From contig OZ260664.1 of NCBI GenBank assembly GCA_965285935.1, positions 52,638,001-52,702,000 on the forward strand: DNA of 64,000 bases, read 5' to 3'. The translations under genes were made by a program, and so were the position numbers. The first letter of the stretch is position 1. Each line of letters opens with the position of its first letter. Under the pieces are notes generated by a model. That model was not told the origin of the DNA and searched no databases. It saw only the letters and a program-made list of their open reading frames with translations. Source of the DNA: Ophelia neglecta (lineage: Eukaryota). Of the stretch, positions 15,001-21,000 are shown one piece after another.

Positions 15001-18000
15001 CTGATGTATGCAACTGTGAATATTAAATTTCCTGTTTCGTTTTTTAATATCTGAAGTTTATCAACATCGTTTTGAGGGAATCCAACACCCAGTGAGTCGA
15101 GATTATATCTAGCTTAGAATTTACCAGCGGAAAGAGAGCAGTATTGAAGTTGAGAGCACGAAGAAAGATAACGACTCGGGGGATGTTGGTGTCGTTTTGC
15201 TTTCACAAATGAATTGTAATTATTTAGGCTTGACCATTAGAAGGACTTTGCTTCCATAAAAAGCATAAAAAAGTGTGTTAAAATTCGCTTTGATATAAAG
15301 CATGGTACTTCTTAAATAATAAAGACAAACTAGCCAGGACCATTTGTTCTACTAAAGTATGTTTTAGACTTGTCTAGGCAATGTGTATCATCAACTAGCA
15401 CTCTATGTGTGGTTCTTTTGCTCCTATGTATTATAAAGAAGTTTTTCAGGTGGCATAAAATGAATGGATGACATAGACCAATTTAAGTGTTAACAGGTGT
15501 GCCAGATATCGTAAATCTAGTTTAAGGGCATTTGTTATAAAGGAATTTCACGAGTTATTAGTATTATTGAATGAATTTTTATTTGAAAATACATAAGAAA
15601 AATATATTACAATGGCAAAGGGAGTTGGACTTTGCTAAAAATTGGCACCAATATATATATATATATATATATAAGATGCTTTACAAGAATGTGAGATTTA
15701 TTATATCTAAATATAGCAGAGCGTGGGTTAGAAACTCTCAGTTCCACTCCACTATTACTTTTTGATATGGCATTGATTAGTTCTATTGGTCCTAAGAAAT
15801 CGGTATGTATATACATATCAAAAGACAGGTAACGCGTCGTCGTCTGTAAACAAATTAAAGTTCACAGTGTTTCAGGACTAGATCTACCAAGACTAAATGC
15901 TTAGTGGTAAACGAAAATGGACAGGTGTGTATCTTTCCAACATGGTATTCCAAATTAATTAACAATTATTTGCGTTTGAGGAACGAATTAGAAAATAATT
16001 GTGTTATTAACAGACGGCGACGCGTCTGTACAGGTAAGCTGCTCGAAACAGCTTTTCTCTGAATAGCTCGTATAGCTAACCAGAAAGCGTGGCTGCCACG
16101 GGAGTGGCCCTCCAAGGAGCGGCCGGTTCAGCGGACACGGCCTCTGAAGTCATTCTCGGCTTGACCACGAAGGGTGCACTACCTAAATTAGAATAACTAA
16201 CCATGACCAGTACAGAAGCCTTGGAAAAATTCAAAGCCGATATTATAAAGGAGTTTGAGGGCCAGTTCGCAGAACTACAGCAAAAACAAAGTTCGCTAGT
16301 AAGCAGCATTACGAAAAAATTGCAACCTGACCACCCACAGCACGAATGGAAGCGACAAGGAACGAAAAAGCAATACGATTTCAACAACAGCGTTAAAGAT
16401 CATCTGACCACTGCCCAAGAATCATTGGAGAACAACGACCCTGACCAGGCCAAATCATCAATTATACAAGGTATCGTCGCTATAGAAAATAGAAACAAAC
16501 TTATTCGTATCGCCGATACTACCCCCGACGGCTGGGCCGTAGTAGACGAATATACGACGAGAGGCATCGCAGACGACTCCGACGACGACAAAAAGATACG
16601 CAAAGCCGAAAAACTCGTCAAGAAAAGGCGGGAAGAAGAGCGGGAAAAGAGGCGCCGCACCCCACAAAATCGCAGAGGCTACCAAAGACGCCAATACTCT
16701 AGTTACTGGAGACCTGCCCTGGCCGCACCTCCAATTCGTCCAAGCCTTCCATCCTACCCCACCAGCTCCTTCTCAAACATCAGACCAAACTTCACTCGAC
16801 AAACAAGCGATTCCTGCCATTTCTGCGGAAATTTTGGCCATTGGCACCGTACTTGCCCAGCAAGGCTAGCTTCCCTTTCGGCAGCCTCAGACAGCAAAGG
16901 ACAATAAAAAGCTAAGTACACAACTTAGACTATTATCATATCCTACCCCCTATCGAGATATTCTTCGTCATAGCTTATCATTCAAGATGTCTAAAATTAT
17001 CAAACCAAATATTCAAGAAAAGAAACAAATGCCTATTTCGGTCGTGGGTCGCCTAAAACAAAACCTTAATTTTTGGAAATCAATTGGGGCATCAAAGGAA
17101 ATCATCAAAATTATAGAACATGGATACGTAACTCCCTTTGTAGGCAACCCCCCTCCCATTTACCTCAAAAATAACAAGTCTAGCCGCGAAGAGCCCACAT
17201 TTGTTAATGACGCGATAGCCGATTTACTATCAACAGGAGCGGTCATAAAAACGCCAAAGCCCCCGCGCATTGTAAATCCATTGACAGTAGCTATCAATGA
17301 AAAAGGCAAAAAACGCTTGGTGCTCGATTTAAGACACGTCAACAAATATGTATACCACAAAAAATTCAAATTTGAAGATTTAAACACAGCGCTTAACTAT
17401 ATCAAACCAAATTCCTATATGTTTTGCTTTGACCTAAAATCAGGTTATCATCATATAGAATTATGTTCTACCCAAAGGGAATATTTTGGTTTTGCCTACC
17501 CTGACAAAGACGGGAATTCCCAATATTATATTTTTACTGTTCTACCCTTCGGGTTATGCTCAGCCGGACTTGTATTTTCCAAAGTCCTAAGAGAGTTAGT
17601 CAAACACTGGAGAGCATTCGGTATACAAATTGTACTCTACCTAGATGACGGTATCGGCGCCGAAGATACGCGCGAAATCGCTTGTACACACAGCGCCGTA
17701 GTGAAAGAAGATCTAGCAAAATCAGGTTTTGTAGAGAATTCAGAAAAGTCTGATTGGAATCCCACGAGAAAACTAACTTGGCTGGGATCCACAATTGATA
17801 CAGAGAGCGCAAAAATTTTTATACCAGCCGAAAAGGTCCAAAACATTCTTGAACTTCTTCAACAAGTGTTCCAAAACGACCATTTGGTAACCGCCAGATT
17901 TATTGCAAAAATCGTGGGAAAAATAACCGCGTGCTATCAAGCTCTAGGTGACACCGTTTACCTGAGAACGAAATTTCTCCAAATGCACGTAATATCAAGA

Positions 18001-21000
18001 TACAGTTGGGATTCCACAACACTAGTAGGCGCCAAACCCACCAGCGAATTACTTTTTTGGTTAAAAAACATACAAACCTTAAACGGCAGGCCGTTCATTG
18101 AAAATGAAATCACAACCAAATTAGCATTTTCTGACGCCAGCGGTACAGGTTGCGCTTCGTGGATCAAAGGAGCACAAGCTCCACAAATCGCACATAGACA
18201 GTGGTCCGATCTAGAAAAAGTTAAAAGCAGTACTTGGCGAGAACTCGAAGCAGTACGTCACGGACTTTGGTCCTTCGGTCAACCACTAGCAAACCAGAGA
18301 GTACACTGGTTTACAGACAACACAAACGTCGTCCCTATTATCAAAAAAGGCAGCATGGTTGAGGAACTCCATTCACTCAGCCTCCGAATCAACGATATCT
18401 GCTCCATCCGAAATATTCGCTTGCAAGTTTCATGGATCCCGCGAGAACAAAACCAAGATGCCGACGCATACTCGCGAATAATAGACATCGAAGATTGGGT
18501 AATAGCAAACCATATCTTCAAATATTTGAACCAAATTTGGGGCAAGTGTGATATAGACAGATTTGCCAGTTCAAAAAACCACAAATTACCACGTTACAAC
18601 TCCCGTTTTTGGGACCCAAATTCCGAGGGAATAGACACATTCACACAAGATTGGTCCAAAACATTTAACTGGTTAGTGCCACCTGTTTACTTGATAACGA
18701 GAACAATACTACATGCACGCATTTGTCATGCAGCAGGCATACTAATTGTCCCCTTTTGGCCATCTTCCACATTCTGGCCACTAATCACAAAGAGAGGTGG
18801 GGTAGGATTCAAAGAATTTGTCAAAGCCTATAGAGAATTTGGCAACATTTATCAACACGGCGAAAACAAAAAGTCTTTGTTCGGATCCAAAAGATTCCAA
18901 GGAAAATCTTTGGCTCTTTACATAGATTTTAAGCCCGGACCAGTAAGTATATATGATAGGAACTTGCAATATCCATGTTATTGGCAAATTGATTAAATAT
19001 ACTTTATTAATTGATTAATAGTTCGACAGATTACTGAAATCGATAGTACAGAATTTCACTGTATATATATACATATATATGTATATAAATTTCTCAACTG
19101 GAGCGTCAGCCCAGAAGTACCACACGAGATGGTACGATACACAACCGGGTTTTTTCTCCCGAGGCCTACAAAAGGCTAACTCACCCAGGCAACGAGCCTG
19201 TATAGACAAAACATTGAATAAAAACTAATCAATACGATGAAATACCCACACGCACTAGCACGTTAAGTAGCCTAAATTTAAGACCAAAAAAGTACACAAA
19301 AGGACACGCAGTGCATATATGACACATATAAATTATGTATAACACATTATTTTTTAAACTTACAGAGATCCTAAGCCACCATACCAGTGACTTTCAGCAT
19401 CTACAAAATCCAGAACTTCAGAGTTTAGTCGCCAAGCTCCCGGACACTCTACTGGCCAGCAGAGCAACAAGCACCACTTCGTCATACGAAGGAGCCTTCC
19501 GAAGATTCAAATCTTGGATATCGCACTTCGAAGAACTCTCATATCTCCCAGCCACCCAAATCTCCGTAACACTGTACCTCCTTTCCTTAATTCAAGAAGG
19601 GAAATCGACCTCCGTGCTAAAAAACGCTCACTCCGCCATAGCGTGGGCACACAAACTAGCAGGTTTCGAAAATCCCACGGACAACACAACAGTAAAACTA
19701 GTATTCGAAGCCGGACTAAGAATTAACGGTAAACCTGTCAACAAAAAAGAGGTCATCACTGTGGATATTCTCGCAAAAATCGTAAACCTCTGTGACACTG
19801 AACAAAACTTCATGTCTGTAAGGACAGCAACATTGTGTCTACTAGCTTTCGCAGGTTTTTTAAGATACAGCGAACTAGTAAATATCAGACGCTGTGATAT
19901 CGATTTCCATCCACAGCACATGACGCTGTTTATCGAAAAATCCAAAACTGACATTTATAGAGATGGTAAAATACTAGTTATTGCAAAAACCCATACAAAT
20001 TTATGTCCTGTAACCATGTTGGAAAAATACCTCTCAATGCTTTCATTGTTAAACTCACAGTCCGATGAATTCATTTTCAGAGCAGTCTCACCATTGAAGT
20101 CCTCGGAAGGATACAAACTCAGAGAGAATCCTCGCCACATTTCTTACTCTACAGTAAGAGATTTACTTAAACACGCATTAATTTCAGTGAAAGAAGATCC
20201 AACCAAATTTGGTCTACATAGCATGAGAGCCGGGGGAGCCTCTGCAGCGGCAAACAACGGAGTTTCTGACAGAATGTTTAAAAGACACGGTCGCTGGAAG
20301 AGCGATACCGCCAAAGACGGTTACATCAAAGACAAACTAGAAAGTCGACTTGCTGTAACTTTAGCATTAGGCTTATGAAACATATTTTTCATTGTATTTC
20401 AGAAACCAGTAGCTTGATGACCGAATCTCAGCACTATATGCCTTCGTTGAATTAGGCCTACAGCAAAGCCGATCGCCTAAACATATATAACACGTACACT
20501 ATTGTTAACTCGTCACTGTACACTACACAATACCGTATGCACCGTAAAAATTTAATAAAGGCAATTATTAAATATTGATGCATAATTCATATCCATATTT
20601 TGACTCAGTCTTTATATTCCTCGGCAGTCGCACCCCCGTGAAGCCACCCTTAAAGTAAGGTGTTACTTTTCATTCTATAAATCAGCAGAGCTGACAGGTA
20701 ATAATTAACAATTATTTGCGTTTGAGGAACGAATTAGAAAATAATTGTGTTATTAACAGACGGCGACGCGTCTGTACAGGTAAGCTGCTCGAAACAGCTT
20801 TTCTCTGAATAGCTCGTATAGCTAACCAGAAAGCGTGGCTGCCACGGGAGTGGCCCTCCAAGGAGCGGCCGGTTCAGCGGACACGGCCTCTGAAGTCATT
20901 CTCGGCTTGACCACGAAGGGTGCACTACCTAAATTAGAATAACATAACTAAATTTTCCTTTAGATCAAGAAAAAATTTACTGACCTCGTTTCTTTCAGCA

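Follow-up and report, generated by a model that had tools for sequence, protein, structure and literature searches.

Expression of the recombinase from a predicted Gag-YR splice

The region from 15956 to 21616 of the analyzed window, a 64-kb stretch of the Ophelia neglecta genome, is a young and intact PAT-like (split-direct-repeat) tyrosine recombinase (YR) retrotransposon. Our results indicate, with a probability of about 0.86, that this element makes its recombinase from a spliced RNA using the donor at 16470 and the acceptor at 19366, resulting in a predicted Gag(1-89)-YR protein of 426 aa. The spliced RNA would join the gag donor to the YR acceptor and omit all of pol, the unspliced RNA would be both the genome and the Gag message, and Pol would be started past the gag stop codon independently of splicing. 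For a YR frame without its own start, it follows from the frame that the start codon is supplied by the Gag piece, which may also carry the recombinase into Gag particles.

Structure and classification of the element

The element is organized as A1 - ORFs - B1 A2 - B2, with A repeats of 242 nt and B repeats of 83 nt, and both repeat pairs are 100% identical. Its features are as follows (a slash marks a splice-site boundary):

15956..16197, + strand: split direct repeat A1, 242 nt, identical to A2, starting with an inverted repeat
16031..16039, + strand: strong candidate donor-like site CAG/GTAAGC in repeat A
16203..16907, + strand: gag ORF, 234 aa, with a helical N-terminal half and a CX2CX4HX4C knuckle near the C-terminus
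16468..16476, + strand: phase-1 donor AAG/GTATCG in the Gly90 codon, closing predicted coding exon 1 (16203-16470)
16910..16917, + strand: pseudo-donor AG/CTAAGT (family pattern AG/HTRAGT), conserved, just 3' of the gag stop
16969..16986, + strand: two candidate pol acceptors, weak and without conservation
16987..18996, + strand: pol from its own ATG, 669 aa, with RT, RNase H and Dam-like methyltransferase (stop-to-stop ORF from 16870)
19335..19337, + strand: ATG in the YR frame, within the 3' end of the predicted intron
19346..19365, + strand: pyrimidine tract and CAG acceptor, phase 1 in the YR frame
19366..20378, + strand: predicted exon 2, tyrosine recombinase (Phage_integrase PF00589, weak SAM-like N-domain, R/HxxR/H/Y motifs)
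20622..20704, + strand: repeat B1
20702..20943, + strand: repeat A2, 242 nt
21528..21533, + strand: AATAAA directly before B2
21534..21616, + strand: repeat B2, 3' end of the element

The inverted repeat that opens A is also present where A begins in related families and is likely the recombination site. An AATAAA lies at most 45 nt before B2 in 7 of the 8 families examined, and the one at 21528 is the likely poly(A) signal for the full-length RNA.

The Pfam domains listed were RVT_1 (5e-18), RVT_3 (4e-5) and Phage_integrase (3e-11), corresponding to RT, RNase H and tyrosine recombinase; a DDE integrase and a protease were absent from this listing. With scores below the curated cut-offs, a methyltransferase (MT) was indicated at the expected place after RNase H (Dam, E = 1.6e-4, ORF residues 542-616), as was a Gag zinc finger of the Pat1 subtype (zf-CCHC_2, E = 0.005), which is seen as CX2CX4HX4C in the translation. 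No DIRS1-like terminal inverted repeats of at least 25 nt pair the element ends. An assignment to the Ngaro-like class was rejected because of the Dam-like domain, as Ngaro elements lack an MT domain according to the criterion in the accessible text of PMC9210276. The PAT-like class was set by repeats and domains, and the RT tree comprised family representatives without reference PAT or Ngaro sequences.

Conservation of the splice sites

As claimed in a preliminary description of this DNA, gag contains the donor AAG/GTATCG at 16470, located after 89 codons plus one base and hence in phase 1. By consensus it is a mediocre site, ranking 15th of the 197 GTs in the element according to crude strength scores, whose donor matrix was not trained on the host. 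The Gag-YR donor is kept at a synonymous position across diverged families. Glycine occupies position 90 in 11 of the 14 family representatives from the O. neglecta genome, whose gag proteins share 21-54% identity, and all 11 encode it by GGT followed by A, while GGT accounts for 35 of the 167 Gly codons in the same gags. Other four-fold columns were invariant in 0/13 cases in gag, 0/20 in YR and 1/60 in pol, the latter with 6/6 rows. Among metagenome contigs, Gly was found in 8 of the 37 loci covering position 90 (8/8 GGT). Overall, GGT is present in 15/15 Gly90 families among 36 representatives, and these families sit on long RT branches. A second phase-1 donor at Gly53, considered for the families without Gly90, was rejected (GGT in only 5/21).

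The acceptor ttttttaaacttacag/AGA at 19365 was likewise found where proposed, in phase 1 of the YR frame and 10 codons past the ATG at 19335, and ranks 5th of 324 AGs on the crude score. A phase-1 YAG lies 71-80 nt before the same YR anchor in all 14 Gly90 families for which YR was fetched, and 11 of these 14 have no in-frame ATG upstream of the acceptor. Across YR groups more broadly, 38/49 have a YAG with 9 or more pyrimidines out of 14 at this place, compared to 232/833 and 65/280 control windows. The intron at 16471-19365 (2895 nt), which wholly contains pol, fits U2-type features: a GT donor, a pyrimidine tract, a YAG acceptor, matching phase and conservation. The exact scheme is not universal, as Gly90 is missing in 21/36 representatives and a clade of 7 families has a phase-0 YR acceptor; a conserved phase-0 gag donor was looked for in this clade and not found.

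Joining of exons 1 and 2 (268 + 1013 nt) gives 427 codons. The structure of Gag 1-148 was predicted with confidence (pLDDT 91), and a fold search with it returned generic helical hairpins only (best Z 7.6, rmsd 2.0 over 54 residues). The junction falls within a predicted helix (residues 80-106), so the Gag piece would not be a clean domain.

Evidence for splicing from genomic copies and gene models

The Gly90 donor has been used in a sister family. In its copy L048, this donor is joined exactly to the acceptor of a gag intron, with 376 nt skipped, GT..AG borders and 2 nt of homology; the acceptor differs from that of YR and the joint is out of frame. In other copies, a GT-AG gag intron of 236 nt or of 183 nt is precisely missing. 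Such precise losses indicate that RNAs of these elements were spliced and then reverse-transcribed. An amphioxus hybrid has four RefSeq gene models, XP_078665737.1 and three more, in which Gag(1-98) is annotated as joined to YR at the homologous residue, and three B. belcheri models exit gag at the same Gly. A single-sequence fold of the amphioxus fusion reached a pLDDT of 40. Together, the conserved donor and acceptor, the L048 copy and the amphioxus models strongly support the in-frame 16470 to 19366 splice suggested in the preliminary description.

Seven family searches of genome DNA, with up to 40 candidates scored each, yielded no processed Gag-YR copies among the scored candidates, and contigs X1-X3, which stem from one sample and behave as DNA, showed no sequences joined at the splice sites. 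When the Gag N-terminus was used as a profile to look for longer proteins, two proteins and no fusion came up, which is weak evidence given the crowded candidate list; the annotated fusions counted here are a minimum.

Alternative routes to YR and Pol

Translation of YR from its own ATG at 19335 on a subgenomic or reinitiated RNA, with the splice-like sites being incidental or vestigial, appears very unlikely. This in-frame ATG occurs in all 11 copies that reach it (out of 12 near-identical copies), and family L207 has an ATG at a similar position. However, it is missing in 9 of the 10 Gly90 family representatives of the O. neglecta genome, including the two nearest, where the first Met follows 42-146 codons downstream, inside the conserved protein. 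Met positions are scattered across 120 homologous proteins, and an own start would leave the invariant GGT in gag unexplained. The preliminary description had named a conserved YR ATG without a conserved acceptor as the outcome speaking against splicing; we observed the opposite. In this element's family, the in-frame ATG makes some Gag-free YR from an unspliced route possible. Even less credible, and extremely improbable, is the synthesis of YR by ribosomal frameshift or read-through as a Pol-YR polyprotein, although YR ORFs elsewhere are described as overlapping or frameshifted in the accessible text of PMC6681497 and PMC3783388. In this element, the end of pol (18996) is separated from the opening of the YR frame (19332) by a gap of 335 nt in which both frames contain stops, which excludes this route for the element's family unless an intron removes the gap; in most Gly90 families the YR frame opens just 2-15 codons ahead of the acceptor.

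A second splice for Pol in addition to the Gag-YR splice, from the donor in repeat A (16033) to 16974 or 16987, had also been proposed, and we consider such a set of three RNAs unlikely. CAG/GTAAGC is indeed present at 16033/16034 and again at 20779 in A2. It is the best of the 197 GTs on the crude score and rare by chance: its score was reached in 2 of 492 windows of 260 nt, and the whole 64 kb holds exactly the A1 and A2 copies. The site is kept in 11 of the 12 near-identical copies, a donor is also kept in the 71%-identical family L031, and 5/14 motif-bearing families have donors of moderate score (at least 4.5) no more than 130 nt past the A motif. Moreover, pol has its own ATG and does not overlap gag in family L041. 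Against this, the donor has no positional conservation across families, and leader donors of comparable strength (score of at least 5) were found in 2/20 families. Both acceptor-like AGs exist as described, catag ending at 16973 and ttcaag ending at 16986, immediately 5' of the pol ATG, but they rank only 83rd and 127th of 324 AGs on the crude score. Where this element has the AG before the pol ATG, L033 and L041 have AAC, and L031, a decayed copy without any AG near the pol ATG, has AAA. In many families, gag and pol share one frame or overlap at length, and no ATG follows the spacer. With neither donor nor acceptors conserved and the pol ATG kept in the nearest families, the proposal of Pol by splicing is not supported. 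A 32-nt difference between two A-repeat subtypes begins with GT, but it is not clean and was rejected as an intron loss.

The ATG-free leader reported for the element is real in that no ATG occurs from 15956 to the gag ATG at 16203, but its length of 78 nt would apply only if the first base of A1 were the transcription start. Upstream ATGs are present in 18/20 family leaders, which suggests that most of A1 is probably not 5' UTR. The ORFs are separated insofar as pol has its ATG 80 nt beyond the gag stop, but measured stop-to-stop gag and pol share 38 nt (16870-16907). For Pol of this subclade, we lean slightly towards translation from its own ATG, which is found 60-80 nt downstream of the gag stop; the probable means would be reinitiation or some other route that does not involve splicing.

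A conserved non-canonical site after gag

We recognized a conserved site, AG/HTRAGT, that follows the Gag zinc knuckle and matches U1 except for a non-G first base. It was found in 17/31 families versus 9/595 control windows, and all 17 perfect matches past the knuckle carry A, T or C at +1 (/ATAAGT, /ATGAGT, /TTAAGT, /TTGAGT or /CTAAGT). On its own, the 8-mer is no more frequent than chance, occurring 12 times in the window compared to 13.6 expected; what is conserved is its position alone. A stop codon or a coded motif was ruled out, because the site occurs in all three frames. The families with gag and pol in one frame (L050, L051, L053 and L055) have /GTCAGT there instead.

Judged by its sequence, AG/CTAAGT at 16910-16917 is a candidate U1 decoy or cleavage-only site. 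Fungal telomerase RNA uses cleavage-only 5' splice sites AUAAGU and GUCAGU, and this effect depends on context according to the accessible text of PMC4299874; the post-gag site resembles them in sequence only (non-G at +1, or C at +3). By analogy, one might speculate that PAT-like elements run their whole expression via the spliceosome, although we regard this as rather doubtful: the normal gag donor would lead to the Gag-recombinase, and first-step-only cleavage at AG/HTRAGT or /GTCAGT would yield a Gag-only RNA and a Pol-containing lariat. If true, a mobile element would set its Gag:Pol:YR ratio through spliceosomal cleavage.

Comparison with known systems

Among described elements, the echinoderm form of Pat1-like elements (PAT-like superfamily, order DIRS; PMC4157794) is alike in its A1-ORFs-B1A2-B2 layout, zinc-finger Gag, RT/RH/MT, YR in the same orientation and internal repeats downstream of YR. 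Splice-based expression is not described for these elements in the accessible text of that paper, whereas in the present element gag, pol and YR are nearly separate and pol lies in a predicted intron. Ngaro-like elements share the split-direct-repeat layout and solo A-B units, but differ by lacking an MT domain, while the present element carries a Dam-like domain, and an SGNH hydrolase ORF is absent from it. A search for 'splic' in the accessible text of PMC9210276, PMC3783388 and PMC8547959 gave no match. The plant Ty1/Copia element EVD produces a spliced subgenomic Gag RNA, which encodes Gag alone according to the accessible text of PMC5580714. In contrast, the spliced RNA of the present element would skip Pol and give a Gag-recombinase fusion.

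No published account of a Gag-YR splice was found in our literature search on these elements, and a prior mention in the 2015 review by Poulter and Butler or in the original papers by Goodwin and Poulter is possible. The literature searched also held no answer to how YR retrotransposons express their often start-less recombinase ORF. The conserved Gag-YR splice is a likely answer and provides an exact, testable junction. It would correct the annotation of the enzyme, whose true N-terminus would be Gag, which is relevant to the biochemistry of these integrases, and it would account for a group of animal RefSeq gene models named 'xerD homolog'. A second, unrecognized RNA control element is suggested by the conserved non-canonical site past gag.

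In retroviruses and gypsy, the last ORF (env and ORF3, respectively) is expressed from a spliced subgenomic RNA that skips pol, and the spliced product of some retroviruses retains a few Gag codons. In foamy viruses, Pol has a spliced RNA of its own. Compared to env and gypsy ORF3, the predicted product of the present element is the integrating enzyme itself, bearing 89 Gag residues, and such a fusion suggests a way for an integrase to travel with the cDNA without a Gag-Pol-IN polyprotein.

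Structure and copies of the element

The interval 15956-21616 is a single intact tyrosine-recombinase (YR) retrotransposon with the following features (forward strand):

15956-16197, repeat A1, identical (100%) to A2
16203-16907, gag ORF
16870-18996, pol ORF, with an ATG at 16987
16910-16917, U1-matching pseudo-donor AG/CTAAGT (family pattern AG/HTRAGT) in the gag-pol spacer
19332-20378, YR ORF
20622-20704, repeat B1, identical (100%) to B2
20702-20943, repeat A2, identical (100%) to A1
21534-21616, repeat B2, identical (100%) to B1

Pfam searches of its ORFs returned RT, RNase H, a weak Dam-like methyltransferase and a phage-integrase domain. 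The family is young and is present in at least 12 copies at 98-100% identity in the 762-Mb host genome, which also harbors many diverged YR families. At their ends the copies have short TAA/TTAAC-like junctions, and no long target duplication is obvious. Repeat A opens with an inverted repeat (15956-16010) that is conserved at the A starts of related families and is likely a recombinase binding site. Three solo A-spacer-B units of this family (L016, L017, L018) lack ORFs, the expected outcome of recombination between A1 and A2. The related loci L048, L050, L052, L051 and L047 are flanked by tandem arrays whose units resemble, by eye, 5S rRNA or tRNA genes, and a target preference of these families for such arrays is possible.

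Conservation of the gag donor and the YR acceptor

The preliminary description had proposed that unspliced RNA yields Gag, that a splice from a repeat-A donor (16033) to acceptors before the pol ATG (16974/16987) yields Pol, and that a splice from a phase-1 gag donor (16470) to an acceptor at the YR start (19366) yields a Gag(1-89)-YR protein. All sites that it named were found in the sequence, the gag donor within the Gly90 codon. By crude scores, based on a donor matrix that was not host-trained, the repeat-A and gag donors ranked 1st and 15th of 197 GTs in the element, and the YR acceptor ranked 5th and the weak pol acceptors 83rd and 127th of 324 AGs. Near-identical copies retain all of these sites but are too similar for a test of selection, and the comparison was therefore moved to diverged families.

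From 54 stretches fetched around diverged hits, 14 gag family representatives (21-54% identical) were picked by hand. Glycine occupied the Gly90 position in 11 of these 14 representatives from the host genome, and each of the 11 uses GGT with A as the next base. Since 35 of the 167 Gly codons in the compared gags are GGT, the naive chance of 11/11 is about 4e-8 if independence is assumed. Elsewhere in gag, pol and YR, 93 conserved four-fold columns were compared, and just one of them, with six rows, was invariant; one pol row in this comparison was poorly aligned. Among the best 80 of 258 metagenome loci, 37 span the position; eight carry Gly, each as GGT. Overall, Gly90 occurred in 15 of 36 representatives, with G/GTR in 15/15. 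In a quick RT tree the Gly90 families required two state changes, with terminal branches 0.12-1.28 changes per column long, so that they appear related yet deeply diverged. Codon usage at this position thus indicates that the gag donor is under selection at the RNA level. Gly90 was missing in the other 21 representatives, and a search of their gags found no common donor.

On the acceptor side, a phase-1 YAG was kept 71-80 nt before a common YR anchor in each of the 14 Gly90 families for which a YR sequence was available (for three, the YR of a sister locus), whereas an in-frame ATG upstream of it was missing in 11 of the 14; this is the outcome of the comparison of splice sites with the YR ATG that the preliminary description had suggested. 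Within the host genome the ATG was absent from nine of ten families, whose first Met lies 42-146 codons further downstream, although two copies of one of the nine do have it. In the studied family YR could be translated from its own ATG, which lies in frame 10 codons before the acceptor. Across 49 YR groups, the 45 nt examined at the start of YR contained a pyrimidine-rich YAG in 38, compared with 28% and 23% of control windows; 17 of these acceptors were in phase 1, 19 in phase 0 and two in phase 2. The phase-0 set includes a clade of seven without Gly90 (L056, L057, L149, L150, L152, L155, L161), with the acceptor 57 nt before the anchor; L056-type YR frames contain ATGs of their own and reach another 138 codons upstream. 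In the 120 closest database proteins Met positions were scattered, and many showed, by eye, a Phe/Leu/Ile-rich run followed by S/T/A-D/E/G, the appearance expected of a translated acceptor.

Traces of splicing in copies and gene models

Two sister families carry a phase-0 GT-AG intron at the same position within gag that is precisely missing in some genomic copies: L089 (G000:C7, about 2.87 Mb) has a 236-nt form that L050 and L086 lack, and L051 a 183-nt form that L125 lacks. L047 also belongs to the intron-carrying loci. In copy L048, the Gly90 donor is joined exactly to the acceptor of the L089-type intron, skipping 376 nt that start with GT and end with AG. Homology at the join is just the 2-nt AG, the 5' arm matches L089 at 99% identity, and the remaining internal deletions listed in these copies do not end in GT-AG. 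The structure of this copy indicates that the Gly90 donor has been used in a sister family.

Four 433-aa RefSeq gene models of an amphioxus hybrid (XP_078665737.1, XP_078683444.1, XP_078688644.1, XP_078674391.1) align over residues 1-98 to the Gag N-terminus of 10 of 13 query gags and continue as YR from the Gly90-homologous residue; three models of B. belcheri exit gag at the same Gly. A Pecten maximus model (P0129, XP_033752719.1), from a lineage without Gly90, consists of Gag(1-170), an extra segment and YR. In the metagenome records L182 and L183, which lack pol, the gag end runs straight into the YR acceptor position and YR is open into a gag-overlapping frame; they may derive from splicing in a lineage with a donor near the gag stop.

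Expression of Pol and a U1-matching motif after gag

The proposed Pol splice found little conservation in relatives. The AG before the pol ATG is not retained, 2 of 20 families have a leader donor scoring at least 5, and 5 of 14 have moderate donors near the start of A, at varying positions. Upstream ATGs are present in 18 of 20 leaders. Expression of Pol from the repeat-A donor, the highest-ranked of the element, is accordingly improbable. The pol ATG is retained 60-80 nt past the gag stop in the element, L033 and L041; gag and pol do not overlap in L041, so that frameshifting cannot be general in this subclade. We prefer reinitiation after gag, for which human L1 ORF2 offers a precedent after a 63-nt spacer. 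Other families have a single gag-pol frame or long overlaps. Downstream of YR, an AATAAA at 20554 precedes donor-like sites at the B1 end (20697) and in A2 (20779) by 140-225 nt; by binding these sites, U1 could keep the RNA from being polyadenylated early, which would give the repeat-A donor a different role.

The pseudo-donor motif occurred within 110 nt after the Gag zinc knuckle in 17 of 31 families. Among control windows it was seen in 2 of 99 from spacers and in 7 of 496 from pol (Fisher p = 2e-18 for the latter, with each family counted as independent); the pattern was first seen on 18 of the same loci and counted afterwards, so the test was not blind. At +1, where a donor needs G, the 17 matches have A (12), T (4) or C (1), and across families the motif falls in all three reading frames. 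Families with a single gag-pol frame have /GTCAGT at the corresponding place. Excerpts of two studies describe context-dependent, first-step-only spliceosomal cleavage at AUAAGU and GUCAGU sites in fungal telomerase RNA (PMC4299874) and indicate that, in a retrotransposon, U1 prevents early termination of the unspliced RNA (PMC5580714). By analogy, a cleavage-only site and U1 protection of unspliced RNA are both candidate roles that fit the motif.

The probable Gag-YR splice and known elements

Of the splicing model, the Gag-YR branch is well supported, with a conserved donor and acceptor, copy L048 and the amphioxus models in its favor, and the Pol branch is not. We consider the Gag-YR splice likely for the studied element (probability about 0.86); its product would be a 426-aa protein. 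Packaging of the recombinase through the Gag tether may follow, as a proposal. Against the splice, its junction is predicted to fall within a Gag helix, and no processed Gag-YR copy was found among the scored candidates of seven family searches in the host genome or in contigs X1-X3.

We found no mention of the Gag-YR splice in literature searches on these elements or in the available parts of ten texts (PMC6681497, PMC7192593, PMC4157794, PMC9341512, PMC5633606, PMC9210276, PMC8547959, PMC3783388, PMC8226300, PMC4495291), a set outside which the key review of the field lies. As far as the excerpts describe them, the studied element resembles echinoderm-form Pat1-like elements in its split direct repeats, its methyltransferase and the zinc finger of its Gag (PMC4157794), whereas Ngaro elements lack the methyltransferase (PMC9210276), which is present here as the Dam-like domain.
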